This document shows positions 2,725 through 59,380 of a stretch of 64,000 nt of DNA, piece after piece. The stretch is taken from NCBI RefSeq assembly GCF_004010195.1, contig NC_057720.1, positions 75,203,782-75,267,781 of the forward strand. Reading direction: 5' to 3'. The DNA is from Chiloscyllium plagiosum. Its lineage: Eukaryota. Made by a program: the position numbers and the translations under genes. The notes below the pieces were generated by a model, which made no database searches, was not told where the DNA came from, and worked only from the letters and a program-made list of their open reading frames with translations. Each line of letters begins with the position of its first letter. Within the stretch, counting starts at the first letter, position 1.

Positions 2725-3085
2725 GTAAAAAACAAGGACTGCAGATGCTAGAAACCAGAGTCTAGATTAAAGTGGTGCTGGAAAAGCACAGCAGGTCAGG
2801 CAGCATCTGAGGAGCAGGGAAATCGACGTTTCGGGAAAAAGCCCTTCATCAGGAATAGAGGCGGGATGCCTGCAGAGTTGAGAGATAAATAGGGGTGAGG
2901 AGAAAGTAGCATAGAGTACAATAGGTGAATGGGAGTGGGGATGGAGGTGATAGATCAGAGAGGAGGGTGGGGGGAAGGTAGCATAGAGTACAATGGGTGA
3001 ATGGGGGTGGGGATGAAGGTGATAGGTCAGAGAAGAGGGTGGAGCGGCTAGGTGGAAAGGAAGATAGGCATGTAGGACAGGTCAC
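2725..3085 (-). mobile_element. Penelope-like pLTR insertion (family A) inside the CR1, carrying a hammerhead motif
   Basis: Shares the gactgcagatgct...gctggaaaagcacagcaggtcaggcagcatc end with other copies. Its pyrimidine-rich upstream region resembles 30190-30420. Confidence 0.85.
2821..2856 (-). ncRNA. Minimal type-I hammerhead ribozyme motif, sense to NOS1AP
   Basis: Minus strand: AUUC-CUGAUGA-A-GGGC UUUU UCCC-GAAAC-GUC^GAUU. Core intact, 3-bp stem II, palindromic ACGU in place of stem III, weak stem I. Confidence 0.7.
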
Positions 3086-3570
3086 TCGATCTAGTCTGTC
3101 TATACCTCACATATGCTTCCTTCTTTTTCTTCACCAAACCCTCAATTTCTTTAGTCATTCAGCATTCCCTATAGCTACCAGCCTTTCCTTTCACCCTGAC
3201 AGGAATATACCGTCTCTGGACTCTCGTTATCTCATTTCTGAAGGCTTCCCATTTTCCAGCCATCCCTTTACCTGAGAACATCTGCCCCCTATTTGCTTTT
3301 GAAAGTTCTTGACTAATAGTGTCAAAATTGGCCTTTCTCCAATTTAGAACTTCAACTTTTAGATCTGGTCTATCCTTTTCCATCACTATTTTAAAACTAA
3401 TAGAATTATGGTCGCTGGCCCCAAAGTACTCCCCCACTGACACCTCAGTCACCTGCCCTGTTTTATTTCCCAAGAGTAGGTCAAGTTTTGCACCTTCTCT
3501 CGTAGGTACATCCACATACTGAATCAGAAAATTGTCTTGTACACGCTTACCATCTAAACCCTTAACACTA
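3086..3570 (-). mobile_element. CR1 LINE, end of endonuclease and linker (continuation of 1443-2722)
   Basis: ORF PTREGAKLDLLLGN..GASDHNSI, near-identical to 39390-39870. Confidence 0.93.
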
Positions 3571-5634
3571 AGGGTGAGAGCTGAGGTTTACTTTACCAAC
3601 AATTCAGACCAATGACATAAGCCAAAATAGCACAAGGAACCAAGTACCATGCAATAGTCTCAGCCCTCACACAGTACAATATTGAGGACCTATGTAGCAG
3701 ATGCCAGCGAAACACTGTTGACACACCATGAATCCTGGGAGTTAATTTTATCTCAATGGTACGGACTGAAGAATCGATGGAGAGAGAAGCAAAGCTAACA
3801 TTTCAGATTGCGGCCTTTGTTGGAATGTTTGTACAGATACTAACTGATCTGTCTAGTATTTCCAGCATTTTGTGTATTTTTATTCCAGATTTCCTGCTTC
3901 TGTTGTAATTTTGAGGTAGTGGTTTTTGCCAATCTTAAGAGGGTTTGATGGTCCTCTCATTGTCACTGGAATGTCTTTGTTTATGTGTGCTTGCAAAGCC
4001 AACAGGTTAAAGTGAATCCTCTAAAGGGCCAAGACATATAATACAACTTCATGGAAAAATTAAAAAGAGCAACTTTTAAAGCAACCGCACAAGAAAGATT
4101 AGCTGCACTATACTGATAGAGTGCACTGAAATACCCAGCCCCATCCATTTTCAAAATTATCACATCTTTTTATTAACCACAGGTTATAAAATATTCATGG
4201 ATGTCTTATCAAATTAGATCTGTGGAAAAGTCTACTATTTTTCTTAATTCCTCTCTGAAACATCAAGTTCTTTTCTAAAAGCTTTCAACATAATTTTGTT
4301 GACGGTGTCTATTAAATCAAATGTTTGAGAAAAACCTGAAACATCTTGCATCACATTAAAATAAACAGATGCTGAATTGCTTTTTAATTCCTAAATAGAT
4401 CTGTGCACATGTGTGAGGGTGGGTGAGAGAGTATATCTGAGTGTATCTGTAATTGAAACAATATACATTAATTCCAAAGTGCCCAACTGTGCTGGACTCT
4501 CAATTTGTAAACATACATTGCGTGTTCCTTCTGTATTGCTGCTTTATATCCCAGCTTTTACACTGATCTATCGACTTGTATACATATCTATGTCAATCAG
4601 TGGAGTACACACGTCTTGCAATGAACAAGCTAAGTATCTGTGTGGAAGTTTGATTTATTTGATTTATTATTGTCACATGTACCGAGATACAGTGAAAAGA
4701 GCTCTTTTGCATGCAATCCAGGCAGTTCATCCCTTAAGTAAGTATGAAACAAAAAGTGACTCCAACAAGAGACAAATTATATCCATTGTCACAGGCAGCT
4801 AGCTCACTCAATGAAAGAGAGAGAAAAAAGCTTAGATGTTGGAGATAGGGTTCAAACCCTCCCACTCTCCATCATTCCCACCTAATCCCGTTGCATGGGC
4901 CTCCCTGATTGCCCACTATGGTGCCCATCATTTTTGTTAAGGTGTCTCAGGCCACATGCCATCACTAACTGGGCAGTGGGATGGTGCTCTTCACCAATCA
5001 CCAATAATTAAAGTCTACTCGTGTTAGATCACATATTAGAATGAGATTTGTGGGAGTGCAGAATGTTGCACAGGTTACATCTCAGGAAAATGTAATAACT
5101 TTCAAAAACCGCAATTTGTCCTTGATCTGTACTGTGCAGTAGGACAAAAAAAAGCATCTAGATCTATCGTGCTGGCATTTCCAGGCTGTGTTCCAGGAAA
5201 AATTTGCCCACAGGACGTCTACTACACCTTAAGAACAGGATTAATCTTAAGTGACATCGTGAAATTACAGCGGTTTAATGAAAGCAGAACTGCATACAAG
5301 CATGTACCATGGACCAAAGAGGCTGAGGGGTGCAAATTGATACTAAGTAAAAATGTTTCACTTGTACATGTCCACGGGAAGTGATTATAGCACCATACAC
5401 CTGGTTGCTGCAGCAGTAGAAACAAGTAATTCAACAGACACAAATAAATACTCCCAACCAACCCTGGGACTATAGTTTGAACAAAACATACATGAATGGT
5501 TCACTGGGATAAAGGGAGGTACCAATGATGGCCAGAGAGGAGCCAGAAGTGCAGCAGATCCATGGAGTTCTGATAGTCCCAGCATTAATTACCAAAAGCT
5601 TGCTCTGAAAGGAATAGGGTAAGACACTAACACA

Positions 5635-5947
5635 AAGAAAGACTTGCATTTATGTTATACCTGGATATACCAAAATGCTTTACAGCCAATTATTTGATTT
5701 TCAAGCCTGGTCACTGATGTGATGTGGGAGACAAGGGGGTTAACTTCCTTGCTTTTCTTCACAATGGGATCTTTGACTGTCACCTGAGGGCAGATGATTT
5801 ACCTGAAGGTCAGCACCTTCAACAATGCAGCACCGCCTCAGTGTTACACCAGTGTATCAGTCTAGAATTCAATGCTCAAATTCTGGGGTGGAACGGGAAC
5901 CCACAAAACTTAAGGCTCAAAAGGTGAAAGTGCCACCAACCCAGCCA
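5635..5947 (-). mobile_element. Deu-domain SINE (SacSINE1/AmnSINE-like)
   Basis: Contains the gggatcttt..cacctgag..cagcaccttcaacaatgcagcaccgcctcagtg core, a tRNA-like head at the right end and a gacttgcatttat tail at the left. Related decayed copies lie near 12760-12930, 16210-16520, 17960-18160, 38615-38780, 45590-46070 and 51400-51620. Confidence 0.7.
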
Positions 5948-6717
5948 GTGATAACAAGTGCTAAAACAGTAATCCAGATGCCTGGTTAATTCTGGGAGTC
6001 CTTCAACAATGACCCCATTGAGAGTCCCACCTGCTGCCTCTTGCTTTGCAACCGACACAAGATATCAGTTTTGTTTCAGCTCTCTGTCAGCTAGGGACAG
6101 TGAACAGTCTCGGGTGTGAAACACAGGAATCTACTGGAATTATAACTCCACAATGTGCACCACATGGGTCCCGACAGGCATGTGGGGAACATGTTAAAGC
6201 AACGCTCAGAACCAACGGGGGCATGGTTACCAATCCCAGGATGCCATTGTGGAGGGACAGGGAACTACACGCTGTGGAACCTTTGGATGCCCGAGAGAGG
6301 AAGGACCTCTGCCCCCTGGACCCCAAGTAGCACTGTTCAACAATTATTCCCTTCCTGAAGCTCCGTCTCACTTCAGCTATCGGGTTTTTTGCCCCAGCTC
6401 ATTGCAAGAGCAGGTTAAATCAGGAGCTGCCTGCCTTGTTGACATATACAAACTGCCAATCTTTTTAGCAGTAGCCTTGCTGTTTGCTCCTTGCCCCACC
6501 TTTGTCTAAACGGGGGTGGGTGCCCTGGAGGCACCTTGGGAGTTGGTCTCAGATCTTTTGTTTTTAAACACTTTAGCATCAGATCTGAACCCAAACCATC
6601 AGTGTTGTGCATAAAAATTAAGTTCAGAGCAAACACAGCGGGAAGATTGTTTTCTATTCTCTCCGGTCACCTATATGTGATTGACAAATTAAAAACGCAA
6701 CAGTTCACATTTATAGT

Positions 6718-6778
6718 TAAGATTAGAGTGGCGCTGGAAAAGCACAGCAGGTCAGACAGCATCCGAGGAGCAGAAAAC
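6718..6778 (-). mobile_element. Truncated PLE pLTR fragment (family A), ending just before the hammerhead
   Basis: gattagagtggcgctggaaaagcacagcaggtcagacagcatccgaggagcagaaaa. Confidence 0.75.
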
Positions 6779-7910: not shown

Positions 7911-8696
7911 AAGAAGGATAGAATCACATGCCAATTTTATAGAAATTGACCATTTTGAGTGAAGGAAAAGGATATCAACACAAGTGTGCTTACAAAATTG
8001 TTTTACAGAGACCACAGAAATTCTTACCTCACTCTCCTACTTGGAGAGAAGGCAAATCAATCGATGCAGCTTCCCTTTGATAGAAACTTGCACAGTATTG
8101 TAAACCCAAGCTCAGGAATCCAGTTTACACAACAAAAGGAAAATTAAAAGCAGGAGGAAATGAAGAAGTAGATAAAAATAACTCGAGTGGAATTCTCTTT
8201 GGCTGAGACAAATGCTAACAGACAGTTAGAGATTAACTCAATGGTCTGATTGCTGAATATCTATTGTGTTACAATGGCAAAGGCTTTTTAATAGATTGTC
8301 TTATTCACCTAATTATCGCCTGTTTCTCTGGTGATGGCATGCCTTCAACAAGGCTCTCAGTGAACAGAGACAAACACAGGCTATTTCTATGTCTCATGAA
8401 GGTTATTTACAACTGCCGTAAGAGAAGTTGTAATTCTCTCTCCTCTGTCATTGAATGCATCAAGAATACAAATAAATTACATTGTATGTATAGATGTTTT
8501 ACATCCACAAACTCCCAGACAGTAAGATTATTTCCATTCAATCTTTCTCCAGAAGAATCCAATTCCTACCGCAATACAGTTCGACGTGTGGCAAGTGCAG
8601 CCAATACATCTTCCAGAATGCTCATTCCTCATGTGCACCCCAGCACGCTCTACAGTGGCACCAAAGCTGATTCTGACTATATCTAGCATTGGTTTA

Positions 8697-8904
8697 GAGG
8701 AGAAAGTGAGGTCTGCAGATGCTGGAGATCAAAGTTGAAACTTTATTGCTGGAACAGCACAGCAGGTCAGGCAGCATCCAGGGAACAGGAGATTCGACGT
8801 TTCGGGCACATTCCTGAAGAAGGGCCTGTGCCCGAAACGTCGAATCTCCTGTTCCCTGGATGCTGCCTGACCTGCTGTGCTGTTCCAGCAATAAAGTTTC
8901 AACT
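8697..8904. mobile_element. Fold-back PLE pLTR element (family A) with a 78-bp perfect inverted repeat and a 14-bp TSD
   Basis: Arms at 8733-8810 and 8827-8904 with a 16-nt loop. TSD ctagcattggttta at 8683-8696 and 8903-8916. Confidence 0.92.
8810..8845 (+). ncRNA. Minimal type-I hammerhead ribozyme motif (best-formed copy)
   Basis: AUUC-CUGAAGA-A-GGGC CUGU GCCC-GAAAC-GUC^GAAU. Stem I AUUC/GAAU, stem II GGGC/GCCC, predicted cut after 8841. Confidence 0.82.
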
Positions 8905-9317
8905 AGCATTGGTTTATTAAAGTATCAGTGAAGAATTGAAACTCTGGTTGCTTCTTCCTTCCTCTTTGCCCCCCTGCCTGGGGGTAACGCCGTCAATTGT
9001 AACCCACTGCCACTATCTCATTTCAACAAAACTGTCACAGATCCGTGAACTTTAGCAGTTTTCAACAACTGGCAACATCTTAATTATAACTATGACTATG
9101 ATTACGACGTTGCCAATGTGTCTGCACAATTTAAAGAGGAAGCTCTATTTTTCTGTATAAGTTGTTAATTTGGTCTTTTCTGTAAGTGCAGCTTTAACTA
9201 ATGCTTGCATTATACTTTAAACATTATTTTATTAGCCTAACAAAGTATTTCAGGAGTGCAACATCTGCAGCTTTAAGAAAATGCCACAAAAAATACAAAT
9301 TTATCCTCTAGATAAAT

Positions 9318-9624: not shown

Positions 9625-9779
9625 ACAAGAAAATGAAGTGTGTACAGCTTTTGTTTTGGTGTTTAATTGATTTTTGGTAAAATTCATGTTTGAATCAATC
9701 CAGTTGCACAGTAAAAGGTCTCATATCTTTTATTATTGCACATTAATTCGATAAGGGGAGATAATTAGCCATAGTGCTG

Positions 9780-21860: not shown

Positions 21861-21926
21861 GTCGTTCTCTCCTGATTTTTAAAATTTTTTGATGATTATA
21901 ATACTCATGAGATTGATATTTTAAAG

Positions 21927-25214: not shown

Positions 25215-25990
25215 TGGATGCACCAATCCTCCATGTTCCAGACCATACCCTGCAAACTCCCTCCCCATTCCTCCACATCCCACACCATACCCTGCAAACC
25301 CCCTCCTCAATCCTCCACATCCCACACCATACCCTGCAAACCCCCTCCCCAATTCTCCAAGTCCCAGGTCACACTCTGCGAACCCCCTCTCCAATCCTCA
25401 ACGTCCCCGGTCACACCCTGCAAACTCCCCCCCNNNNNNNNNNNNNNNNNNNNNNNNNNNNNNNNNNNNNNNNNNNNNNNNNNNNNNNNNNNNNNNNNNN
25501 NNNNNNNNNNNNNNNNNNNNNNNNNNNNNNNNNNNNNNNNNNNNNNNNNNNNNNNNNNNNNNNNNNNNNNNNNNNNNNNNNNNNNNNNNNNNNNNNNNNN
25601 NNNNNNNNNNNNNNNNNNNNNNNNNNNNNNNNNNNNNNNNNNNNNNNNNNNNNNNNNNNNNNNNNNNNNNNNCAAACCCCCACCCCCAATCCTCAACGTC
25701 CCGGGTCACACCCTGCAAACTCCCACCCCAATCCTCCACGTCCCGGGTCACACCCTACAAACCCCCACCCCCAATCCTCAACGTCCCGGGTCACACCCTG
25801 CAAACTCTCTCCCCAATCCTCAACGTCCCGGGTCACACCCTGCAAACTCTCTCCCCAATCCTCCACGTCCCGGGTCACACCCTGCAAACCCCCACCCCCA
25901 ATCCTCAACGTCCTGGGTCACACCCTGCAAACTCCCACCACAATCCTCAACGTCCCGGGTCACAGCCTGCAAACTCCCTCCCCAATCTCA
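25215..25990. repeat. C-rich minisatellite with a 42-43 bp unit, spanning an assembly gap (N at 25434-25672)
   Basis: Unit ccaatcctcaacgtcccgggtcacaccctgcaaactcccacc repeated on both sides of a 239-N gap. Confidence 0.95.
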
Positions 25991-26553
25991 AGAGTCTTTC
26001 TCCTGCTCCTCTCCCTGAGAGTAGAATGAAAGAAAGCAAACCACTGCCCACATATACTATTGCACAAAGCCGTCAGATGAACGCTACCTACAAACAACAA
26101 CGAACCAGGTTTCACAAGGTTCTCACACATCACTGACTTTGTCACAATGGTAGGACTTTGTGGAAAATTATCTAACAATTTTAATATTGATGGTGTTCGA
26201 AAGCATTACAAGACTGTACCTACCACAGGCTGATGTAATACTCAACTCAAAACAAACTGCTAACTTTATCTCTGCATTTTAACTTATTATTTCTCACAGT
26301 CAGTATAGCTTTAACAGACACGACGTCAAAACGGTCATGGGGTATTATCTATCCACATAAAGTTCACTGACAGCATCTTGCCTTGGGATCACTTTAAACA
26401 GGACTTCCTAGTGGAAACACGTTGTCTGTTGTAATCTATTAACTTAATATTAAAGCAAAGACTTTTCATTATACCCTCATTGTGTCGGAGCGACCGGCTA
26501 GGCCAGCATTTATTGACCATCCCCAATTGCTCAGCAGGCAGTTAAATGTCAAC

Positions 26554-27649: not shown

Positions 27650-27890
27650 AAGCAGGATCCAGCAACTGCAGCTTTTCTTTGTCTCTACATTTGTGCCACT
27701 GCAAAAGTCTCTTCAATGACGATTTTCCTGCTCCTTGGATGCTGCCTGACCTGCTGTGCTTCTCCAGCACCACTCTAATCTAGACTCTCTTCAAAGATGC
27801 CCACTTTGAAGAAGTTCTCTGCCTCTCTCAGAGCCTCCTGCTCATCTACTCTGGATTCCAGCATCTGCAGTTTTTTTTTGTCTCTAACTA
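27650..27890 (+). mobile_element. Rearranged PLE pLTR fragments (family A) inserted in an old CR1 3' fragment (about 27565-28415)
   Basis: gattttcctgctccttggatgctgcctgacctgctgtgc from 27721; ends ccagcatctgcagttttttttgtctc. Diverged flanking duplication gaatgtagggtagac / ggatgcagggtaggc. Confidence 0.75.
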
Positions 27891-30182: not shown

Positions 30183-30520
30183 TCTAATGTAGATTTCTCC
30201 AGCTTCCACATTTCCCCTCCCCCCACCTTATCTCAGTCCCAACCCCCGGATTCAGCACCACCCTCTTGACCTGCAATCTTCTTCCCGACCTCTCCGCCCC
30301 CACCCCATCTCCGGCATATCACCCTCACCCTCACCTCCTTCCACCTATCCTATTCCCAGCGCCCCTCCCCAAAATTCCCTCCCCTCTACCCTTTATCACA
30401 GCCCGCTTGGCACACCAGCCTCATTCCTGAAGAAGGGCTTAAGCCCGAAACGTCGATTCTCCTGCTCCTTGGATACTGCGTGGCCTGCTGTGTTTTTCCA
30501 GCACCACATTTTTCAACTCC
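30183..30520 (+). mobile_element. Penelope-like element 3' end (ORF C-terminus, pyrimidine-rich UTR, pLTR with hammerhead)
   Basis: NVDFSSF resembles the recalled end of PLE GIY-YIG ORFs. It is followed by a C-rich tract and the family-A pLTR. Confidence 0.8.
30423..30458 (+). ncRNA. Minimal type-I hammerhead ribozyme motif
   Basis: AUUC-CUGAAGA-A-GGGC UUAA GCCC-GAAAC-GUC^GAUU. Core intact, predicted cut after 30454. Confidence 0.78.
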
Positions 30521-33670: not shown

Positions 33671-33756
33671 AGCTTTTCCAGCAACACATTTTCAGCGCAT
33701 TTCCAGCAACACATTTTCAGCTCTGATCTCCAGCATCTGCAGCCCTCACTTTCTCT
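33671..33756 (+). mobile_element. 86-bp PLE pLTR 3' end with an internal tandem duplication and a 16-bp TSD
   Basis: TSD cgtccagagagacagc at 33655-33670 and 33757-33772. tttccagcaacacattttcagc occurs twice; ends ctccagcatctgcagccctcactttct. Confidence 0.88.
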
Positions 33757-35764: not shown

Positions 35765-35941
35765 CTCTAATTCGACGGAATGGTCAGATATTGCTTTGGG
35801 TAGAGGATTGTGGGAATTATTGGTCTAGGTACACCGCAGTTGCTCAAAAATGGTGACATTCAAGCAATAGGTGGAATCCAAATTTATCATCTCATCCAGA
35901 AGATAGCAGTCAATAAATGTCTGAAGCGATTATAATGTAGG

Positions 35942-36167
35942 CAGAAGTGGGTGCTGGAGATTAGAGATGCTGGAGATTAGAGTCAGGGTTAGAGTAGTGC
36001 TTGAAAAGCACAGGTCAGACAGCATCCGAGGAGCAGGAAAATTGATGTTTCGGACAAAAGACCTTCATCAGGAATGATGGAGGGCTTTTGCCTGAAACGC
36101 TGATTTTCCTGCTCCTCGAATGCTGCCTGACCTGCTGTGCTTTTCCAGCACCACTCTAACCTTGACA
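35942..36167. mobile_element. Fold-back PLE pLTR element (family A) with 13-bp TSD and two decayed, oppositely oriented hammerheads
   Basis: TSD attataatgtagg at 35929-35941 and 36168-36180. Minus core CUGAUGA-A-GGUCUUUUGUCC-GAAAC-AUC at 36040-36075; plus core decayed (tgatggagggcttttgcctgaaacg). Confidence 0.88.
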
Positions 36168-36329
36168 ATTATAATGTAGGAAACTAGGCCATTAATTGGC
36201 ACACTGCAAGATCTCAATGTGATAATGACCAAACAATCTGTTCTATCCTCGCTGAGTGAAGAATAAGTATCAGCCATTCCACTTCGAAATAGTGACATAT
36301 TTAATATAACAATAAAGACGAAAGCAGGT

Positions 36330-37828: not shown

Positions 37829-37961
37829 TAGGAACAAATTACTGCAGATGCTGGAATCCGTGCTGAAAACAACCAAATGCTGGAGATCACAGCAGGGCAG
37901 GCAGCATCCACGGGAGAGACTGCCTGACCTGCTGCAATCTCCAGCATTTGTTGTTTTCAGA
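37829..37961. mobile_element. Fold-back PLE pLTR element without a hammerhead
   Basis: Arms ctgaaaacaaccaaatgctggagatcacagcagggcaggcag / ctgcctgacctgctgcaatctccagcatttgttgttttcag. Diverged TSD ggcattaaaagaaa / ggcattagagaaa. Confidence 0.8.
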
Positions 37962-41738: not shown

Positions 41739-43152
41739 CTAAATGGTCATGAAACATTAACTCTGTTTTTCTCCAGAGCTGTTGCCTGACCTGATGACTA
41801 TTTTCAGTTTTCTTGATTTTAGACTGTCAACATCTGCAATACAAGTGCTTTAATACAAACCAAAAAAAATATACTTACAACATCAAAAAGCTGATAAGTG
41901 TGCAATCCTATTTGTCACCACATTTAACAGGACAAAATTGAACATTACAGTGACTTCTTTCATCATGACAATGGGCTGCCCTGGAATTATTCTGGTGTCT
42001 ATTTCCAATTCTGACTGACTGTTGTCTGCTCTGAGCACTGTACAATTCCCACCTTTGAATGTGTTACACAAAGATGCAGACTCTCATTGCACTTGGGAGA
42101 AAAAGCTCGAGAAATCTAATCCCCATCCTCTATTATTTTCGTTAATCCTGCAAATGGAAAACAGCACTAAATCCCAGTCCAGCCTTCAAAACAGTACTGA
42201 ACCAAGCTCCCAGTTACAGGCTGCTCACTTTAACCCCATGGATGAATGATACACAAATGAAAACACCATGAATGTGCAGCAGATTTCCAAACCTGTTTTG
42301 CAGCAAATCAATGCCACAATTTACTCACTTCTTTAAACACCAAAACGTTGATCCGCTCCATTATGGAGCTGAAACTTACTTTCACATAACTCATTGTTTT
42401 AATTTTGCAAAGTACGTTTAATAAAGCAATTAATATTATTATTCATCACATGAAACCTAACCTGTCACATGGTTGCCTGACCTGATAGAGTATAACAGGA
42501 TTATTAAGTAATGTGATGTTCAAATCAGATTAGTATTGTTGGCAAGATCCTTTTTTTGAAGAAAAATTAAAAATTAGATTTTTCTTTTCCTTCTCCAAAT
42601 TTAAAACATTTTTTAAAAATTGCAGTATATGCAAATACATTCAATCCCTGGGTCAACATAATGCGGTTCACAGGCCAAGGGAGAGTGATGACCAAACGAG
42701 GATGACGAGGTGGATGAGAGGGGCCCACTCACCAGCCGAAACGGAGACCCTGCCCCAGGCCTCAGCCTCCTGCTTTAATCAGAGCTGGTTTCCCCTCCAT
42801 TGGGAGAGTGTTGCACAGCCTCTCTTGTAATTATAGTGGGCCAAAGAGATACACTTCCCACAATGACGAGCTGCATTCGTTTTCAGTCCCCAGGAAAGAC
42901 TAGCAAAGCCTATACACGGCACTGTAACACAGTTGGAATTTTCCGCCTAATGCAATGGTTGTCGTGAAGAATACGAATGGTACATTTGCAAATCAAATCA
43001 GTCCCACGTCACGAGGTGAACGCTTCAGCCATTTATTGAGTCACACACTACACATTCCAAGACCTAAATCCAATTCAAGCCCTTGCTTACTGGCCCCATT
43101 GTCAGAAACCAGTGCTGACTCCTATGCTGAATCCAGTGCTGAATGGTACAGT

Positions 43153-43278
43153 TGAGAAGAAGGGCATGTGCCCGAAACGTCGAATCTTCTGTTCCCTAGA
43201 TGCTGCCTGACCTGCTGTGCTGTTCCAGCAATAAAGTTTCAGCTTTGATCTCCAGCGTCTGCAGACCTCACTTTCTCC
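43153..43278 (+). mobile_element. PLE pLTR element (family A), 5'-truncated inside the hammerhead core, 14-bp TSD
   Basis: TSD ctgaatggtacagt at 43139-43152 and 43279-43292. Starts ..gaagaagggcatgtgcccgaaacgtcgaat, lacking the CU of CUGAAGA. Near-identical to the 8697-8904 element. Confidence 0.9.
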
Positions 43279-43841
43279 CTGAATGGTACAGTGCAAAAGG
43301 AGACCAGTGGGCCCTTTCAGGCCATGCTGTGCCCCTTCAAAGTTAGCCACACCCCACATTCTTTTCCTATATCACAGCAATTGCTTTCCCCCCTTCTGCA
43401 AGGGTTTGTACAACTCCCCTTTGAATGTCACCACTGGATGTTCCCTATAAAACACACTACAAATCACAGATAATATGCCCTAAAGAATTGGTAAACATTT
43501 AATCCGACATGTAGCTGGACATCAGGATTTGAATGACACTGACCTGCAATAACATTGCAGAAAAACAAGTTAAAAATAAATGTAACAAATTTCAGAACTG
43601 AATTCGACCTAAACCATTTCCCAAACTTCAGCGATATCACAAGAACAGAAGTGTGTGCCTATGATGGAGAGGGACAGCAGGAAATTGCGGAGACAGAAAA
43701 TGTAGGAGGCGGAAGAAAGGGGGGGGAAAGAAAAAGACTGAGACAAAGAAGGCAAGACAAAGATAGTGGGTGACGTGAGGGAGAGAGAGTATGAGGAGAT
43801 GGAATGCAAAAGGAGCTCAAGGGAAGAGTGAATGTTAGAGG

Positions 43842-43892: not shown

Positions 43893-44448
43893 AGGCAGAG
43901 ACTGGGAACAATCAGTAAACACTGTACAGAAAGCCTGATGGCTGCAGGGCAGATTCCTTCAGTTTATTTTGTTTAGGATCTCACCAGGGGCGATGAAATC
44001 TTTCCTTCCAGACAATATCATACTGCTCACTCAGGAAGGAAAAAGCAGGAAATGGAAAAGGGTCACTGACCTTCTAAATGGGTCAAAGGAAGCCATCTAT
44101 TTAAATACAGGTGGAAATCTGGTCTCTGTCTCGGCCATTTCTGTGCCTCAGGACAGTATCAGGTGTAGGTGTTAGTGTGCTGTTGTTGAGAAGTGCTCTT
44201 CTATGTAGCCAGTTTGAGATAGACCATGTATAACCTGGCAGCTAGAATGCTGACCAATTCTACCCAACAGTGATGGAGGAGGACTATAAGCCTTAAGGAC
44301 AAGACAGAGCTTGCTTCCTGAGATGATGATCCCAGTAGATTCTAGTAAAATTCAGCAACAAAGGGAAAGGGGAGAAAACACCTCAGACAATCCACATACA
44401 GAAACTGACATGAGATGTTAGTTAAAATGTTACAAATACTCAGGCCTT

Positions 44449-44679
44449 GTAGTGGTGGGTATGTTCGCTGAGCTGGTAAGTTGATTTGCAGACATTTCGC
44501 ACCCCCCCCCCCTCTTTGGAGCCTCCGGTGAGCTGCTGCTGTACTGTGTCTTCTGGAATTTACTGAAGGTGTCACTGAGACAGGGGACGAACCATCTGCA
44601 AGTCAATTCCCAGCTCAGCAAACATACCCACAACCAATGACAATTGGCACCAGAGTTACAAATCTTTACACAAACCTTG
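44449..44679. mobile_element. Fold-back PLE-like element (family C) with a decayed hammerhead
   Basis: Arms at about 44455-44499 and 44588-44630. Plus-strand ctgaagg-tgtcactgagacaggggac-gaacc-atc at 44563-44597. Diverged TSD aatactcaggcctt / aatatccaggcctt. Confidence 0.7.
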
Positions 44680-44989
44680 AATATCCAGGCCTTCTTTAGG
44701 TTATTTCACACCCAGTCCATCGCCATCAACACTCAGAAAAACTACTATCATGTACCCATCAGTTAATCTACAGCGTTCACTAATTTCTTTTAGAATCAGA
44801 CAATTTCTTCCAGATTGTTTGGCCAGGAGGAACAGGCAGGGGACTGTCACTCAACATCTGGCTGTTGAGGAGCTCGATTAAACAGTGACTAGCTCTTCAC
44901 AATGTGTGCAAATACGATTACGCAGATGAGAAAGTGTTTGTCAGAGCTGCTTAGTACATTCTCCAGTCTGGTGAGAAGTTAAGTCCAAA

Positions 44990-45896: not shown

Positions 45897-45941
45897 AGAA
45901 GTGAGGACTGCAGATGTTGGAAATCAGAGTTTAGATTAGAG
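45897..45941 (-). mobile_element. 45-bp PLE pLTR extreme 3' end with a 16-bp TSD, inside a Deu-SINE
   Basis: TSD tgatctgaaagatggc at 45881-45896 and 45942-45957; insert agaagtgaggactgcagatgttggaaatcagagtttagattagag. Confidence 0.88.
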
Positions 45942-46865
45942 TGATCTGAAAGATGGCTGTATTGCACAGAGTGTCAGATTAGGATTTGCGATCGGGTCTT
46001 GGGATTGGACAGCAAACATAAACCTCTGACTACGGGGCTGGAGTGATTCCAACTGGCCACTGCTGACACTGCAATAGATTCAATGGGATTTGCCAGTAAA
46101 GCATAGGTCCTGATTGGCCCACAGTGTTGGAAAAGATACATTCACGTGACCAATTACCAGAGCTCCCAAAAGTAACAGTTTTATATTTACTTTGGATAAA
46201 AGTTATGCATGTTCTCCCCCCGCCTCCTAGAAAAACCCGAGTTGGCATTTTTTTTTAAATGTTTCTTTGATCAATTCCTGTGAAAAGTTTTGAAAAGGGA
46301 GTTTATCCTGTAGGGTGTCTCTGACATATTAACTGAAGACCATGGGATTTAACTGTACTTCTGAGAAATTGTTGACTGCTGGCCAGCCATATTCTTTGAT
46401 CTTACTCGACCGTGCACTGATCTGGTGATAATGACCATTCCAGCGTGTTTTATTTTAACAGAGAATTGATTAAAGGGCGATGCACAGCTGAATGATTTAA
46501 TCAACTCGAGGTCTCTGACTCAACCATAAAGCTCACTGAGACGTGCCTTACAATTCGTGGATAATTCCAGTTTCACAAACCCAAACCATGGCCTTACATT
46601 AACCCTTCTCGTTCTAGCCCACCGAGTCTATTGCAGGCAGCCCAGCAGCATATGAAAGTGGAAACCCACGCAGACACAGGGACAATATGCAAACTCCACA
46701 CAGACAGACCATCGCCCAATGCTCTCATATTAAAGTACTCAAGCCCAGAATGTTCAAATTAGATCGTACAGCATTACTGACATGGAGTCATGGTTTCCAA
46801 ACAATTTATGAGGCAGTTGGGCAAACCAAGGAACATTAGACCTGAAATTGTTTGTGATTCAGATT

Positions 46866-47210: not shown

Positions 47211-48145
47211 GGAAAGGAGTGGCTTTTTCACATGACCTTCTCCCATTCTGTAGGGGCTCATATTGATCAAATGCAATGTATTAAGCAGCAACAATTCGAC
47301 CAAATAAAGCTACAGAAAGTGTTAACGGTCTGTACGCAGCAAGGAGAAGCTGCTGTGACCTTAGATTGAACAACAGATGTGACACAGTGACAAAACTTGC
47401 TCATCTGTCAGCCGCTGTGCTCTGGTTTGTAAATGCACCATAAAACAGGTTGTCCTTGATCTGTAACTACGCTCAATGCTGCAGAAAGTGGCAGCCACAA
47501 CTCCAGTGCTGGTCTTGTGTAAGGCAAGGGCAGCAGCACTATCTATGGCAGCGCCCATTCAAAGGTCAGGCTCAGGAGGTTACCTTTGCCCACGTGGCAA
47601 CAAAAGTGCCCTGGCAGCGCATCCAACTGCTAAAAACCAGCTAGTCGACATGGGCTAGTGAATGTTTTAGCTGGGACTGGACTCACAAGTTTTGAAGTTT
47701 ATAGCTTCTTTAGCCTGCAGGAATCTTGTGCTTGCACCAAGCAAGATTGCTGCTTCAAACGCACACAGAACAGACAGATGAGTATTGGGCACCCCACCCC
47801 TCCACCGCAGTGCAATATTTCAGGTAAAACTCACACACAATATACTAAAAACTTGCACGGTGTAACTCCAATGGGCTTTGCCAGAACAGGAAGGTTTTAT
47901 GAATGAAACTGGATGAATTAAGTAAGTGCATGGTGTTCAAAATGTCTCTCATAAGACAGTTTTAACACGCTGGTCAGTACAACCGGGGCACAAGGCCATT
48001 TATTTTTAAAACGTCGGTAGCCTTTCAATTTGAACAGTGGAAAATCACCCTGCCTGTGCCAGTCACCTAGTTACAGAGTTGAAATCCCTCCCTCATTCTG
48101 AGAGCTGCATCTTAGTTTCTCCTGAGCCAGTCAAGCTTCACGTCC

Positions 48146-48275
48146 TCTCTGATGAAGAGTCATCTAGACTCAAAATGTTAGCTTGCTCTCTCTCCCCATG
48201 CATGTTGCCTGACCCACTGTGATCTCCAGCATTTGTTGTTTCAGTACAAGTTCCAACATCTGCAGTAACTGGCTC
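48146..48275 (+). mobile_element. PLE pLTR with a CpG-decayed hammerhead
   Basis: ctgatga-a-gagtc atcta gactc-aaaat-gtt: stem II intact, CGAAACG changed to CAAAATG. The body matches 37829-37961. Confidence 0.78.
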
Positions 48276-49404
48276 CCTCAAATCCATTCCGGCTGTTCTC
48301 CTGTTCAAGGAATGTGAGTCAAACCTATGATCTGTCAAGGAATAAATACTTTTGGTTGCCAAAATAAAATCTAGAAACAAAACACCTCTGTCACAGACTG
48401 AGATATAAACATTCGCTGTGGAGAATCAAGGCCTGATGGATGTAAGGCAAGTCACAGCAGACTTAAAATCTTGTTCTGGACAGATTCAAGTAAATGGTAT
48501 GCCCCATGAACTGCAATACACAGGAGACTGACTCAACAATCGACTAACTGGTACGTTCATAGGTCTACTTCCAGCTCCTAGAATCAGGCAGAGGACTTAT
48601 AGCAAAAAAAGCTCTGAAAGGCCTTGAGCAATCATTGCTCTCTCATGTAGAGTTTATGCACTGCAATCCAAAAAGAATTTTTTGTTTTTGAAAGAAAGCC
48701 AGAAGCCGATAAGCTGGTTATATATTTTGTCACCGTTAAGAGAACTGGTTTCATTTTTTAAAAGGTTTGTAAAATATCCAGTAAAGTTTCCAAACTGAAA
48801 TTTCAATTAACTCCAGCCCATTAAGTTGGTTCATTAAACTGGTTTTCCAGAAACCAGTCTTCAGAAACAGTATTGTTAACAAAAGAAAAAGTGGGGAAAG
48901 ATTTTGCGATTTCATCTTGATCAGGATGTATTATTCTGTTTCTGAATTAGAATTGCAAACGGATACAGAGATGTGAAACTCGGGAGATCATTAAAACCAG
49001 GGAAATGAGTCACACGGCAAATTCCAATTTCGGAATGTACAGTTTGATCAGGTCATGTTGTCATGTGACAGTGAGGTGTCATTGGGCATCTCTTTTGAAG
49101 AGGTGACTTTGAACCTTTATGACTCTCAACTAATGAATAATAATCAGATGCAAATCAAGGGATATTTTAAAGCCATGTGGGTCCATACCTGTAATTGCAG
49201 AGCTGCTGCCTGACATAATGCCATTAGTTCACTATGAATCCACATTTATATAACAACTTTAACAGAGGGAAATGTCTCCCAACATGCTTCAAACAAAACG
49301 TGACACCCTGCCTCACAAGGCAATGTTAGTGCAGGTCATCAGAGAGCTGGTAAAAGATTGCGGCTTTAAAGGAGCATTTCAAAGGCAGGGGAGAGATGGG
49401 GCGA

Positions 49405-50560: not shown

Positions 50561-51102
50561 TCTGCCATATAGTTTCAACCTGTTCTGTCCAGACTGCACA
50601 CAATTGAAAAACTCAAGCTAACCTCCTCTTCACCCTCCCTTCCCCCATCTTATCCAATCTGTCCAATGCTACTCCAGCTTAGCTGGTAGAGTATGCAATT
50701 CTTAATCTCATGGGAATACAGGAAGATAGGAGCAGACCATTCAGCCCCTCAAGCTTTCCATGCCATTCTGGGCAATTTACTCCATAGTATCTCCGCATCC
50801 TTTGAGGTCATAAGTATCCAAAGATTTATTCATCTCTTCTTTGATTATACTCAATGGCTGAGCTTCAGCATTCCTCGAGTGTGGAGAATTTACTACCCAG
50901 CATGAAAAAGATTCCATCTTTTTGCACGCCCCTTATTCTGAGAATGTGCATCCTGGTTCCAGATTCCCCAGCCACACATATAGGAAGTCATTTCAGTCTT
51001 TTAAAACTCTGTCATGATTTGGAGATGTTGGTGTCGGACTGGGGTGTACAAAGTTAAAAATCACACCACACCAGGTTATAGTCCAACAGGTTTATTTGGA
51101 AG

Positions 51103-51137
51103 CACTAGCTTTCGGAGCGCTGCTCCTTCATCAGGTG
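51103..51137 (-). ncRNA. Minimal type-I hammerhead ribozyme motif (family B), sense to NOS1AP
   Basis: Minus strand: CAC-CUGAUGA-A-GGAGC AGC GCUCC-GAAAG-CUA^GUG. Stem I CAC/GUG, 5-bp stem II, palindromic AGCU in place of stem III. Confidence 0.8.
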
Positions 51138-51193
51138 GTAGTCACAACTACCTCTTGCTTCCAATTAAACCTATTGGACGGTGATAACCTGGT

Positions 51194-51347
51194 AAAAACA
51201 ATGACTGCAGATGCTGGAAACCAGAGTCTAGATTAGAGAGGCGCTGGAAAAGCACAGTAGTTCAGGCAGCATCCAAGGAGCAGTACTGCTCCCTGGATGC
51301 TGCCTGAACTGCTGTGCTTTTCCAGCGCCTCTCTAATTTAGACTATA
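51194..51347. mobile_element. Nested family-A PLE palindrome (60-bp arms, no loop) with a 10-bp TSD
   Basis: Arms at 51225-51284 and 51285-51344, centred on cagt|actg. TSD ataacctggt at 51184-51193 and 51348-51357. Confidence 0.88.
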
Positions 51348-51654
51348 ATAACCTGGTGTTGTGTGATTTTTTAAACTTAAAACTCTGTGGTTTTCAGCCA
51401 TTCAATTTATAGTCATTTTTGATGTAAAGGCTGGTTCCATAACACTGTTTTGAAGTGAACAGGGGAGTTGTGCCTAGTATCCTGGACAGTAATGGTCCTT
51501 CAGGCAACATCTCAAAAAAAAAAATGATCATCTAGTCAAAATTACATTGCTGGTTACATCAATTTCCTATGTGCAAATTTGTTACTCTCTTTCCTACCTT
51601 ACAGCAGTAATAAGAACAAATGAATTAGGAACAGAAATAGGCTATTCCGTCATT

Positions 51655-53470: not shown

Positions 53471-55847
53471 ATGTAGCCCTAGATGATGGGGCAGTCAGGC
53501 ATCAAATCCCCTCCAAGGCCTTCTGCCTGGGCTGGGTGATGGCCACATAAGCCAGGCCCAGGAGGAGATCCTCTGATTTGCTCAACCTTTCTGCACTGAG
53601 TGGAGAAGTCAACTCTTTCGTTTCTCCACCCACCTTTTTTCTCCGTCCTCATACAGACTAAACAGTTTTTCACCCCACCACCTGTAGTATTTTTTCCATA
53701 TATTAGCCACCAACCGTAAATCACCCGTGCTTTCCGATTGATTAAAAGGTAAGTGCAGAGCCAGTTAAAGGCAATGCACTGACTCCAAATGTGAAGGAGG
53801 AGGAAGAAATCAACTTTTAAAAAAGAAATTAATCTATTTTTCTCATCAACCTATTCAGCGATGTTATTGCAGGTGGGACTTGAACCCGGGCTGTACCACA
53901 AGAGGGGCCTGGAAATCGGCTCTTAAATGAAAAGCCCGACGAACATTACCTGCTGTCAATCATCTCTGCAGCCGTTCGGTTTGAGCCTTAAAGTGACCAG
54001 CATTTCAAACTGTTATGACCTCAGCCGATCCACCATGAGGAACTAAAGGAGTGTAGCGATCTTGGAGTAAGTTACAGAGAGAGGGAGCAACTTAAAAAAC
54101 AGGAGATTTATTTTATTCAGCCCTGGAACATGAGCTTCACTGGCTGGGCCAACATTTATTGCCCATCCCTAGTTGCCCTTGAGAAGGTATTGGTGAGCTG
54201 CTTTCTTGAATCACTGCAATCTAAGTGCTGTGGGTTGACCCACAATGCCTTTGGGGAGGGTACACGATGTCTTTTAGTTTATGTTTGCGTGAGACAGTGC
54301 AAGTGTCAGAGGGAATAGGGATGTGTGTTTTATGCTTTCTGTGTATTGTCTGAGATGTTCATCTGGACACAGGCTTCATTTACCCTCTCCCTGTCTAAAC
54401 TTCTCTTTCTCGGTTACTCTCTCTCCTTGACCTTCCATATTTTTCTCCATTTTCTGCCCACTCTCTCGCAGTCAGCTCCTCTCCACGTCAATTCTTTCTC
54501 TCCCCAAATCGCTCACGCTCACACACTCTCCTAGAGTCACAATCGTGAATCCATGTGAGATTCTGGAAGACAGCTCTAGATTGCAGAAGGTTAACACAAT
54601 GGAACGGCTTAACAATTATTTTATAATCAAAGCGCAGCTAGACCAATTGCATCATGGAACTACAGAGCTGGACAGAATACATATGCTGCTTATAGATTTA
54701 ATTCTGAAATATTTTTAATCCATTGAGGAGAAACTCTGTTATATCTAAACAAAAGCAAGACAGCTGGACATCAGGAATAAAATAAAAAGCAGAAAATGTT
54801 GGAAACCATCAGCAAGTCAGGTAATATATACAGGCAGATGTAGATGATTGAAATACTGTCATTAAGGCAACATGATTTGGTATAGCATTTACGTTTGTAG
54901 GGTTGGGTGAATTTACTTGGTTTCATCTGAACTCATACCAGCCAATGGTTTTGGCACAGTGAAAGCAGAGTTCAGATCTGTACAAAAAGCCAGCAGTGTT
55001 GATTAGAAAAAAAAGTCACGAAGAGTGAGATTAGAATTCCTTGTTGATATGGCCATCTGTTTTTACTTAAAGGGAAATCCAATTAAAGCATGGTTACAAA
55101 CTATGCCCACAGACATCAACACAAGTCCAATTTTTTTCACTTGGTGTTTCTCACTTTCAAACACAGGGGTAAAAAAAACAGAATTTTCCTTCAATAGGCT
55201 ATTGGTCTCACATTGAGCCGCGATGAGATTCAGACAAGAAGAACAAAAATAGATAAAACGCATTGCTCACCTGTATGGGATCTTTCTGTGTGCAAACACT
55301 TACCTATATTGTAGCATTCTCATAATTTATTGTACCCAAAGCACTCTAGGCTATCTCTGGAAGATGTGACAAGGTACTGACTTAATTTGTGAATTTTCTC
55401 TCAGTACTTTTCCTGTCTGTTGAATAAAACTACCAGCACACAAAGCCAAGCCTTCTTTCCCACCCCCCCCAACCCCATCCATGAACCAGTTTATGATGCT
55501 CTGACAACAGAGATGTTTAGTTACCTTAGTAACAGGATTTCCACAATTTACCCTGTTTCTTAATAAGGTGATGAACTTCAGAAAATAAGCAGGTTTATTG
55601 ACAAAACTGAAGCATTTAACCAGCCGCTGTTATCAATTCAAATAACAACGCTGCTTTGAAGTGATTAATGAAAAGTTTAAACAAACAGAAGGTTTCATAT
55701 GAATTGCATTCTTTGCATTTACACAGCAACTTCCAGAAAAGAAAATATGGCGAGGTGCTTCAATCAGTTAAACCATGGCACATAGACAAAAAAAAGAGGA
55801 TACACTGAGGCAGATGACCAAATGTTTAATCAAAGAGACAGGGCTTT

Positions 55848-56177
55848 ATAGAATCCCTACAGTACGGAAACAGGCCATTCAGCCCAACAAGTCTACATCA
55901 ACCCTCCAAGAGCATTCCGTCAGATCAACCCATCCCTGCATTTTCTACAGCTAATCCACCTAATTTACACAGCCCTGAACACTATGGGCAATTTAGAATG
56001 GCCAATCCACCTTATCCTGCACATCTTTGGGCTGTGGGAGGAAACCGGAGCATCCGGAGGAAACCCACGCAGACACAGGGAGAATGTACAAACTCCACAC
56101 AGTCACCCAAGGGTGGATTTGAACCCAAGTCCCTGGTGCTGTGAGGCAGCAGTGATAACCACTGAGCCACTGTACCT
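55848..56177 (-). mobile_element. HE1-type SINE
   Basis: Reverse-complement head and body. Confidence 0.9.
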
Positions 56178-57067
56178 GTAGCTGGATGTTAAAAGGAGGC
56201 TCAGGTTGTTTTATTGGAAGGTGCAAGGTCTTCACATTTTGACCAGAACAGTCGTGCTGACAGAAGATAGACAGTTAGTATCAACTTCCAGCACAGTGTT
56301 AGGAATGTCAAGTTTTGCAATACTTGTAATTGCCGACTGTATAATGATTTCGAATTATGTTCACTTGATACTCAGACACCAGGTCCATGGAGAAGGACTT
56401 CCAAAGGGGAACACAGAAGAAGGGTGATAGAGGTAGCAACTACCTACAGTATGCAGCACAGAATGCAGGAGAGAGTAGACACTCGAATTAAAGTGACCAA
56501 GTTTATAATGGTTCAGAACACAGCTACAAGATTCACTTAGCTTTGTGTAGAGGGAAGACTCTCCAATTCACCCCACATCTTGAAAGTCAGTTCTGGGATT
56601 AGGAGTGACCCAAATGGGAAGGGAAAAGAAAGGAACAAGCTCTTGGGTGCTAGGAATCTCTTTGAGCAGTTCCTGGAGAGTAAAGTGTCCGCTTCAGAGT
56701 ACGGTATACCCAAGAGGTTTAATTTTCAGTTGCTTCTGAAGTTAATGGGAAGCTTTTCTACAGTTTGCAACATACGTTGCTTAAACACTACTCCAGTAAG
56801 CAATGTTGTTTTTTGTAAGCTTGCTCTAATAAAAGACTAAAACTTGAAATTTTGTCATATGACCATTTCAGTCCCTCACTAGAAATTCAAATTTTGTTTA
56901 AGCTCCTGGTCTGTACAAAGAGCTGAAGATTAGCCAGGTATTGAGCTACTTCCACCTCTCCACAAGCCAAGTCTCCTGCTCAACTCTTCAACATCCTCAG
57001 ACCATCCTGCTTCTGACTGCATCAGACCATTCCCATGGATAGGGCTTCCATGATCAGGATTTGGGGG

Positions 57068-57305
57068 TATGCGTGTTAGGGTGTGTGTGTGTGTGCGTGC
57101 ACATGCGAGGGCATGAGTGTGTGCGATGGTGTGTGCGCACTTGCAAACGAGCGTGCGGGGTTGCGCGCGTGTGATCAAGCATGTGTGCCAGGGTACGGCG
57201 CACACCTATGCTGTGCATTTGGAGGGGTGAGCGTTTGTGTAAATGTGCAGCGGAATGCGTACATGCATTTATGCAAGGGCGCGTGTAGGTGTGTATATGC
57301 ATACT
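57068..57305. repeat. Degenerate (GT/GC)n alternating purine-pyrimidine tract
   Basis: gtgtgtgtgtgtgtgcgtgcacatgcg... over about 240 bp. Confidence 0.8.
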
Positions 57306-57876
57306 AAGTGGGAAAAGGCAACGTTCTGTACTATGATTTCCTTACATTGATGAATGCTCAAATACTTTACACAAACAAACAAGCAGGTATCTGGATACAT
57401 CCAAAGTTATAAAAATTTAAGACAGTGAATGTCCTGTAGAGATGTGTTGCTTTTGCTAGCAGATTCCATGAAGCAGAGTTCAGGTCTGATTTAAAATAAA
57501 ATACTGACATTCCTCAACATCCTACAGCTGAAAAACATTGCAATTCTTTATATGCATGGCTGGAACATTTGTGCATTCCCATGGCAACTACAACACACTG
57601 AATACTTCCGGGAATTAAACACATCTCTTCAAAAACATGAACCTACTGAACTGACCCATCCTCAATAGATACAACTGCCAGAAAACTGTATTTTAATGCA
57701 TTTTGAAACCTGACAGAAGAATCCTATCTGTGATAATAAGCCAGTCAAAGCCTGGTCATGCAGCAGTTTGGTATGGAACACCTATTTGGTCCCCATGAAC
57801 TTTGAATTCTTCTGGGTTCACTTCCAGCCCATTCACACACTCACAGAACTGCTGCTCACTTGAAGCATTGACTCAC

Positions 57877-57935
57877 CTGTAGATAGGATCCTGCATAATC
57901 AACATCTTGCTCTCATCCCAGGTCCATTCTTTCTT
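57877..57935 (-). CDS. NOS1AP: NOS1AP/CAPON internal coding exon (equivalent to human exon 4), PTB domain: [19 protein letters not shown](R)
   Basis: Minus strand reads tttgctttttttctcttatcttcag|AAGAAAGAATGGACCTGGGATGAGAGCAAGATGTTGATTATGCAGGATCCTATCTACAG|gtgagt. It is 59 nt, phase 0 to 2. The peptide matches recalled [25 protein letters not shown] and splices in frame to 1268-1376 (AG|G = Arg). Confidence 0.96.
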
Positions 57936-58349
57936 CTGAAGATAAGAGAAAAAAAGCAAAATATTTTAGCAGTGATAACATTGTCAACTTAACCTGCAAG
58001 TGTCAGATATGCTGTAGCATTCAGTTCTTTGGAAAATGTACACATCTTGAGTGAAACTCATACATGAAAATGCCATGTTACTCTGAATCCCATAGGATTT
58101 GAATATAAGATTATAAATGACAATTAAAGCGGGGTAGTGGCAGAGCGGTAATGGCATTGGACTTGTAATCCCGAGGATCTGATTTCATGGGATCAAATCC
58201 CATCGTGGTATAAAGAGGGATTTATGTTCCATTAATAACTTTGGTAGTCAAAACTGGACTTGGTAAAGGTGACCACAAAATCATTGAATTTTGTAAAACA
58301 CAATTGAACTCCTAATGCAATCTCATGTCTCCCCTGCCCAAAAAAAAAT

Positions 58350-59380
58350 GTAAATAGTACTCCAGGTATGATCTCTCCCAAGACTCTATGTAACTGCAAT
58401 AAAATGCCCTTACTTTTATATTCCATTCCCCTGGCAATAAACGCTAACATGCCATTTGCCTTCCTAATCACTTGCTGTGCCTGCAAGCTATCTTTATTTT
58501 TTGTAGTTCATGTGCCAGGAAATCCAGATCAGTCTGTACCTGCACATTCTCCAATCTCTCTCCATTTAAAAATTGCAAACTGCTCCTCCATTCATCTTGC
58601 CAAAGTGGGCAAGTTTACATCGTCCCACATTATATGCTTTCTGCTAAATTTTCCTCTATGTTCCTTTATAGACTCTTAACTCCTCTCCACAAGTTACTTT
58701 GTTCCTTATCTTGCCATCATCAGCAAATTTAGCAACTGTACATTTAATCCTACATCCAAATTATCCATTTAGACTGTTAATAGTTGAAGCCACACCACTG
58801 ACCTCTTTGCCATGCCACTGATCACAGCTGGTCAACTTAAAAATTTTATTTTTATTTCTATTCTCTACTTCCTGTCAGCATACCCACTCCTTCATCCATG
58901 TTAGATGCAACTCCATCTGATGAAGAAGCAATGCTCCGAAAGCCTGAGATTTCAAATAAACATGTTGGGTTTTAACCCGGTGTCATGTGACTGTTGACTT
59001 TGTCCACTCTGGTCGAACACTGGCACCTCCACATCATTTATTCATGTGGACATGGTATACAGTGAGCTTTTATTTTGCTGTGTAACCTTTGATGTGGCAC
59101 TTTGAATAGCCAAGCATGCTACATCTCCAGCTTCCCTTGATTCCCCCGCCTTTTATCTGCTCGAAAGTCTCTAATAAATTAAGGAAACACAACTTCCCTT
59201 TCAAAAACAAACATACTCACTCTGCCTGACCCCATTATGATTTTCTAAGTCTCCTGCTACAACCTCCTTAATAATGGAATCTGGCAACTTTCCTGGGAGG
59301 AAATTTGAAGTTAATGAGCATATTGATTCCTGCTTTGTGTCTCCCCCTTTCCTGAATAATAGTGTTATTAATTTTTTCAT
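58350..59380 (-). mobile_element. Old CR1 LINE fragments, interrupted by a PLE at about 58910-59035
   Basis: QAQQVIRKANGMLAFIARGMEYKS; LLFRKGG..SLTS; aaatttgctgatgatg (KFADD). Confidence 0.8.
58910..59035 (+). mobile_element. PLE pLTR (family B) with a partly decayed hammerhead
   Basis: ctgatga-a-gaagc aat gctcc-gaaag-cct from 58917. The body is the reverse complement of about 51011-51137. Confidence 0.78.

Follow-up and report, generated by a model that had tools for sequence, protein, structure and literature searches.

Hammerhead-bearing repeats in an intron of Chiloscyllium plagiosum as probable pseudo-LTR ends of Penelope-like elements

The window analysed here is a stretch of 64,000 nucleotides of Chiloscyllium plagiosum DNA (NCBI RefSeq contig NC_057720.1, positions 75,203,782 to 75,267,781), and the elements in question are short repeats with minimal hammerhead ribozyme cores, which we assign, by comparison with longer copies elsewhere in the genome, to the pseudo-long terminal repeat (pLTR) ends of Penelope-like elements (PLEs). 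Two consecutive in-phase exons on the minus strand, separated by an intron of 56.5 kb, belong to a PTB-domain gene (Pfam PID, E 9e-8, the sole match above cut-off among 230 frames scanned), which we take to resemble NOS1AP. A preliminary description of the window had placed all of the repeats in one intron; this holds for most of them, but a copy at 58913-59037 and a remnant at 929-987 lie outside it (Table 1).

BLAST of the window with natural reference copies gave 29 pieces, which group into about 17 insertions from families A, B, C and D plus a D-like family E (four or five families in total), where at least 13 short insertions from at least three families had been proposed. With a strict structural descriptor (core, extra base, at least four stem II pairs closed by G-C, and GAAA-NN-UH) three intact cores were found, 8814 (+), 30427 (+) and 51134 (-), while 100 shuffles of the window gave a mean of 0.01 cores per window and a maximum of 1. 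Four cores had been called intact, and the fourth, 2852 (-), fails the descriptor by a single pair, C standing opposite U in stem II (GGGC/UCCC). All five cores listed as decayed or truncated (36040, 43155, 44563, 48149 and 58917) are present and were placed by a regular-expression scan and local read-out at 36071 (-), 43156 (+), 44563 (+), 48149 (+) and 58917 (+). The single extra A described after the core is found in most descriptor hits, but the copy at 44563 belongs to a family of its own, C, and has U as the extra base. The suggested Rfam scan returned no hammerhead family match in the window at E<=5; its mir- matches were rejected as microRNA genes, being inverted pairs of the repeats. 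Two of the insertions are nested, a family A pair having entered one arm of a pair from family B (Table 1). PLE ends inserted into other PLE ends were also seen at several further fetched loci.

Exact pattern counts over the 3.56-Gb assembly, which are lower bounds and for which every reversed control gave 0, found 76,851 cores of family A, 15,860 of family B, 7,596 of family C and 92 of family D/E, at least 100,399 in sum, in keeping with the abundance claimed beforehand. The family A tail has 141,306 exact matches, and there are 24,706 first-look candidates for a reverse transcriptase (RT) piece of family A and 12,392 for the nuclease end of family B. In 1.22 Mb of partly selected loci the minimal type I core (CUGANGA..GAAA..UH) gave 254 descriptor matches (reversed control 0), in which the palindrome at positions 15.2/16.2 is CG in 145 and GC in 77; 247 of the matches carry A as the extra base and 7 carry U. 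The stems were compared by eye, MAFFT having misaligned family C. Stem II is GGGC/GCCC, GGAGC/GCUCC, GAGUC/GACUC or GGGUC/GACCC depending on the family, with a longer bulged stem in family C; the first pair of stem I is C-G in A and B, A-U in C and U-A in D and E; and stem III is replaced by the palindrome ACGU, or AGCU in family B. The minimal type I hammerhead assignment and the palindrome in place of stem III were thus upheld, as was the variation of stem II with pairing kept, to which variation in stem I and in the palindrome can be added, together with a compensatory stem II (GAGC/GCUC) in two family A copies. Free-energy folding of dimers gave loop-loop duplexes and did not return the hammerhead dimer, a result that is uninformative for cleavage. 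Other hammerhead-like cores with a different stem II occur at three fetched loci (L100:9426-9456, L118:1391-1414 and L126:7104-7124), which suggests more PLE families than the five described.

In families A and B the longer copies have RT motifs upstream of the core, followed by a GIY-YIG nuclease with a CX4CxxC linker before it; upstream of the family C core there are RT motifs and a nuclease without a visible linker, and in family D nuclease fragments only. The nuclease motif Y.I.C..C...YIG was found upstream of the core in broken natural copies of A, B and C. A single ORF (open reading frame) in which the RT is followed by a C-terminal GIY-YIG domain bearing a CCHH motif is characteristic of PLEs that carry an endonuclease. 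Among six fragments submitted to Pfam, three matched RVT_1 and none matched GIY-YIG; the first match in Atlas was an RT/GIY-YIG cluster (0.98), and a PDB sequence search found no relative. The A and B proteins share 28-29% identity. Since the longer copies run into RT and GIY-YIG frames, the short repeats are assigned, on these sequence features, as pLTR end pieces of PLEs that encode both domains and not as separate retrozymes. The PLE origin had been proposed beforehand, with a choice left between non-autonomous, retrozyme-like units and truncated copies. Short PLE copies they are, but a separate retrozyme family is not supported: the long copies of A, B and C are coding, and a retrozyme would be expected in tandem arrays with no coding partner in cis, of which there were 0 among 238 family A copies. 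The RT and GIY-YIG partners that were to be sought were found as coding long copies of A, B and C, with no intact ORF among those seen.

The Neptune clade carries a CX2-5CxxC linker before the GIY-YIG domain, and the CX4CxxC of A and B makes these two families Neptune-like in sequence; the family D fragments are partly decayed. Family C fragments (loci L283 and L297) have no linker cysteines just above the nuclease and have an ATG inside the core; members of the Penelope/Poseidon clade would be expected to lack a linker finger and to have an ATG at the start of stem II, as in PAc, the Poseidon element of Anolis carolinensis. One locus (L125) has the classic PLE arrangement of an inverted pLTR followed by pLTR-ORF-pLTR, with an ATG directly behind the long tail, and in another (L081) the family A tail continues into the element body, so that the hammerhead and tail module forms both the 3' end of the insertion and the 5' end of the coding unit. 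At these two loci and at L122 and L124 the pLTRs occur in partial tandems with an inverted 5' copy. Long open frames that resembled intact ORFs were rejected, the frames being runs of N.

The 3' ends of the repeats are bimodal and lie about 35 nt apart, in agreement with the optional 30-40 bp tail of PLEs with an endonuclease (EN+). Solo family A copies use both ends (109 short, 86 long and 1 between). Head-to-head pairs, by contrast, combine one of each: long and short tails were found together in 57 of 61 family A pairs (about 30 expected, p 2e-13), in 33 of 37 family B pairs, the other four of which involve an end at 23-25 nt, and in 10 of 10 family C pairs, which comes to 100 of 108 pairs in three families, with no pair of two long tails among the 108. 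Because exact target duplications of 8-17 bp flank the pairs (39 of 61 in family A and 19 of 37 in family B), each pair is taken to be one event; near-full-length insertions of 3 kb are among the flanked pairs. The centres of the pairs are palindromic with short overlaps and differ from copy to copy.

For the 5' junctions, 320 family A tail copies were found in 1.19 Mb of fetched DNA. Of these, 237 came from regions that were chosen by tail matches or are contiguous with the window, a few windows having been placed so as to include core matches as well, and 14 copies were dropped for N at the junction. The 5' ends gather at the front edge of the core: 92 of 151 fall within 11 nt (0.055 per nt), whereas the 28 nt beyond account for 7 of 59 (0.004 per nt). 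The mode in family A is an A four bases before C3 of the core, and in family B the ends gather around an A that precedes C3 by eight bases; we refer to each as the +1 A. TATAAA is found at -30 to -32 from the +1 A in 35 of 51 long family B copies, and in family D ATAAAT lies about 25 nt above an initiator-like TCAC-TC at 7 of 20 loci, both being read against the general promoter consensus for TATA box and initiator. In subfamily A2 the TTATCT that takes the place of this TATA box in family A belongs to a run of pyrimidines closed by AG. A spliced form that would use the pyrimidine-AG site 27 nt above the +1 A was considered and rejected, only 2 of 223 junctions being near there. A search for sequencing runs listed no RNA run for this stretch. 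In RNA reads of another organism 184 reads carry unlike sequence before exactly 30423, so the junction recurs at this point. The same run contains joints from 30455 to 30423 and from 30464 to 30423, in which a position close to the predicted cut is connected to the +1 A by G or GG; these are single contigs and possibly tandem genomic copies.

The base before the +1 A differs between long copies and those that start there. In long copies it is C or T. In family B copies that start at the +1 A it is G in 24 of 26, compared with 20 of 76 other junctions (Fisher p 2e-9), and in family A it is G in 13 of 21 compared with 74 of 238 (Fisher p 0.007); the sets include loci selected for a non-C base, and the background share of G among non-C bases is 28%. 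A hand count of the first 100 listed of 2,582 genome matches for family B gave 66 G, 8 A and 4 T in the 78 short copies that remained once 22 long ones carrying a point change had been set aside, and the first 100 listed of 12,828 matches for family A gave 52 G, 32 A and 16 T, with the share of A inflated by palindromic centres. An extra G at the 5' end of a retrocopy is the mark of a copied cap in other retroelements, and the G seen here is as expected for an RNA end that would have been capped.

We consider it probable that the repeats are PLE pLTR ends and that the short ones are complete cDNAs of the first 95-135 bases of a capped and uncut transcript. RNA polymerase II would start at the +1 A, which precedes the core by 4 nt in family A and by 8 nt in family B, and the RT of the element would start internally at two sites in the tail, as it does in vitro for the anole element (PMC11167929). 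From a start near the 5' end of the RNA it would run to the cap and add a C, which would leave a mini-copy. Where both nicked target strands acted as primers, one for each internal start site (twin priming), the two cDNAs would join through short homology in the self-complementary hammerhead region into an inverted pair. Cleavage by the hammerhead would take place solely in dimers held together by the 4-bp palindromic stem III, probably aided by protein. That some 10^5 insertions record a PLE cycle of this kind, with a start before the hammerhead, a capped uncut template and one start site per nicked strand, is a broader proposition, towards which we lean only slightly.

Several observations weigh against this reading. 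Family A has no canonical TATA and carries TTATCT at -30/-32 in 62 copies; for Drosophila Penelope, an internal promoter without a TATA box has been reported to start transcription within the pLTR (PMC2377424). Most copies of family C reach well beyond the front of the core. All ORFs seen are broken or interrupted by N, none being intact over its full length. No RNA 5' end emerged from the poly(A) single-cell run, in which no position gathered many molecule starts or ends and no reads ended at the predicted cut; the run comes from another organism, was read to 2% and is unsuited to the purpose. Of 9 solo family A copies that have both a G and a duplication, 7 have the G within the duplicated target sequence and 2 have it as an extra base, so target choice could contribute; of the solo family B copies, three with G had no detectable duplication and two with a duplication had no G, and within inverted pairs the opposite arm can often supply a template for the G as well. 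A G within the duplication could come from annealing of a C-ended cDNA to a target end that matches it, or from a preference for such targets, and we favour annealing because family B, with its other sequence context, argues for it. Finally, when genome-wide patterns were set to require three mismatches above the junction, 481 copies were found to start at the predicted cut, compared with 275 two bases below it and 127 two bases above.

This last, modest excess, with the 6 of 208 reaching copies that end at the predicted cut in the fetched loci, is what would be expected if the ribozyme cut the RNA before copying, the inserted copies deriving from cut or re-ligated circular RNA as in the model of PMC4209133. 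The other 202 of the 208 read through the cut and most copies stop just above the core, many of the listed cut-site cases are small indels in full copies or microhomologies at inverted centres, and the control two bases above is lowered by CpG decay. Family B has no pile-up at the cut, and copies derived from circles would not stop at the +1 A. We regard this explanation as very improbable and put the contribution of a cut template at no more than about a tenth of the +1 class; the earlier claim that the elements are ribozyme-processed is not supported for the inserted copies. The 5' pile-up could instead reflect stalling of the RT at RNA structure, or microhomology with the target at ATT/GAT sites preferred by the endonuclease, and not the end of an RNA. 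The anole protein does prefer ATT (PMC11167929), and several family A duplications end in GAT/ATT and overlap the first bases of the element. Family B, however, piles up at another sequence (ACAA/ACTA), with a stronger excess of G and a TATA 30 nt above, and in inverted arms the 5' ends, which are not joined to target DNA, pile up in the same zone, so that we think it doubtful that stalling or microhomology accounts for the boundary.

For the pairs, a single cDNA might fold back on the palindromic hammerhead, or be self-primed in antisense, with the endonuclease trimming one end. Self-priming has been proposed (PMC3846280), as has a tail from endonuclease-mediated resolution (PMC8557442); fold-back also predicts a one-sided tail, and the palindromic centres with their short overlaps agree with it. 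Yet a second arm produced by fold-back is contained within the first, and in a hand count of the 57 family A pairs (scored at more than 3 nt further 5') the short-tailed arm reached further in 27 and the long-tailed arm in 16, with 14 ties. That neither arm is regularly a subset of the other favours two RNA-templated cDNAs; in addition, solo family A copies occur with either end, and both ends map to sites at which the RT starts in vitro (PMC11167929). Fold-back is thus unlikely, although of the alternatives it is the one to which we give most weight. We consider it decidedly improbable that the short copies form a separate family of non-autonomous elements, similar to retrozymes or to short interspersed elements (SINEs), with masters of its own beginning at the hammerhead. 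Their very high copy number, their sharp 5' boundary and their excess over long copies would suit such a family, and animal retrozymes are reported to derive from PLE pLTRs (10.64898/2026.07.22.740005). Every short subfamily, however, has long counterparts running into RT/GIY-YIG frames, the centres of inverted pairs vary between copies, solo minis are without the upstream TATA region, and none of the 238 family A copies passes from the long tail into a shared repeat unit, so that retrozyme-type arrays are absent from the sample.

The remaining content of the window was also surveyed. A tandem array of units of about 42 bp (25221-26022) surrounds a run of 239 N (25434-25672), and there are many repeats that we take to be copies of one tRNA-like SINE family and 3' fragments of CR1/L2-like long interspersed elements (28044-62950 and 1452-64000). 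After its start, the family A fragment at 27720-27879 has sequence like the 5' body of the element, followed by a long-tail remnant. At a fetched locus (L003:1882-2898, minus strand) RNase H-like and protease/RT-like frames, LTR-retroelement- or provirus-like, lie beside a family A copy.

Table 1 Positions of PLE-derived insertions and host exons in the window. Family letters are those of the text.
Feature	Position	Strand	Details
D/E-like decayed remnant	929..987	-	
Host exon, PTB/PID domain	1268..1376	-	context, not element
Family A (A1) 3' fragment	2723..3084	-	upstream pLTR sequence; core 2852-2825 with stem II mismatch; long tail
Family A tail only	6720..6777	-	no core
Family A (A3) head-to-head pair	8699..8904	both	minus arm 8699-8810, long tail, end inside stem II; plus arm 8810-8904, starts at +1 A, intact core 8814-8841, short tail; 14-bp target duplication 8683-8696 / 8903-8916
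Family A fragment	27720..27879	+	starts approximately at predicted cut site; no core
Family A (A2) 3' fragment	30320..30519	+	+1 A at 30423; intact core 30427-30454; short tail
Family A tail remnants	33672..33755	+	no core
Family A head-to-head pair	35942..36167	both	decayed core 36071 (minus); 13-bp target duplication 35929-35941 / 36168-36180
Family D head-to-head pair	37830..37960	both	coreless; long + short tail
D/E-like decayed remnant	41751..41838		
Family A (A3) solo copy	43156..43279	+	without first core bases; long tail; 14-bp target duplication
Family C (Poseidon-like) head-to-head pair	44446..44680	both	decayed core 44563
Family A long-tail remnant	45899..45943	-	
Family D copy	48136..48276	+	decayed core 48149; long tail
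Family B head-to-head pair	51012..51378	both	minus arm 51012-51142, intact core 51134, +1 A 51142, extra G 51143, long tail; plus arm short, 51156-51193 / 51348-51378
Family A head-to-head pair	51188..51345	both	coreless; long + short tail; 10-bp duplication; inside one arm of the family B pair
D/E-like decayed remnant	54780..54821		
Preceding host exon	57877..57935	-	context; in phase with 1376-1268
Family B decayed copy	58913..59037	+	outside long intron

The way in which the inverted repeats and the tail of PLEs are formed, and the role of the hammerhead, are stated to be open in section 15 of PMC8557442. If the capped-RNA and twin-site reading is true, it explains the inverted pLTR, the one-sided tail and the mini-elements together, and it places the task of the ribozyme outside the templating of cDNA, for example in decapping or in translation control of the element mRNA. 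The thousands of intronic copies on the sense strand would imply that the motif is nearly inactive as a monomer in host pre-mRNA, and the copy number makes the elements a statistical record of PLE integration. Within the literature searched, which lay outside subscription journals, Repbase/Dfam and supplements, we found no report of these elements from a shark and no statement of twin priming or of a cap G in PLEs, nor of the promoter spacing or of a counted rule for the two tails.

The elements are of a kind already known, as is the motif class. The minimal hammerheads of PMC4209133, as far as its available text goes, share with those described here a type I core without stem III, an extra base between positions 9 and 10.1, the G10.1-C11.1 pair and a palindromic 15.2-16.2, and likewise occur mostly as solo truncated copies, with opposite-strand pairs and several families per genome; their activity was low and for dimers only. 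About 4,000 copies were counted in coelacanth and about 9,000 in Xenopus, compared with at least 100,399 exact cores here, the search rules being different. That text names no shark and holds no analysis of 5' junctions, extra G or tail classes; the present analysis adds a cap-like G, the spacing of the promoter and a count for the rule of one long and one short tail. Animal non-LTR retrozymes (PMC7229834; 10.64898/2026.07.22.740005) have in common with our elements a type I hammerhead and PLE pLTR ancestry, and are present in one chondrichthyan sampled. In the portions available these retrozymes are tandem repeats with a hammerhead in each unit, whereas the copies described here are solo or head-to-head and have coding partners. 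In EN+ PLEs a tail at one end only has been noted qualitatively and explained in other ways (Arkhipova et al. 2013, PMC3846280; Craig et al. 2021, PMC8557442); compared with the parts of these accounts consulted, the one-end rule is counted here and explained by twin priming, and most of the insertions are only 95-220 bp long. A mechanistic parallel is PAc (Frangieh et al. 2024, PMC11167929), in which two internal RT starts define the tail, both target strands are cut and extended, and hammerhead cleavage is unnecessary for insertion in vitro. PAc belongs to Poseidon, unlike the Neptune-like families A and B, and the available text, which describes no cap signature, reports that the strands did not differ in start site and does not link the two sites to the two arms of one insertion. 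The long and short rule and the extra G provide two sharp predictions for that in vitro system and for cap mapping.

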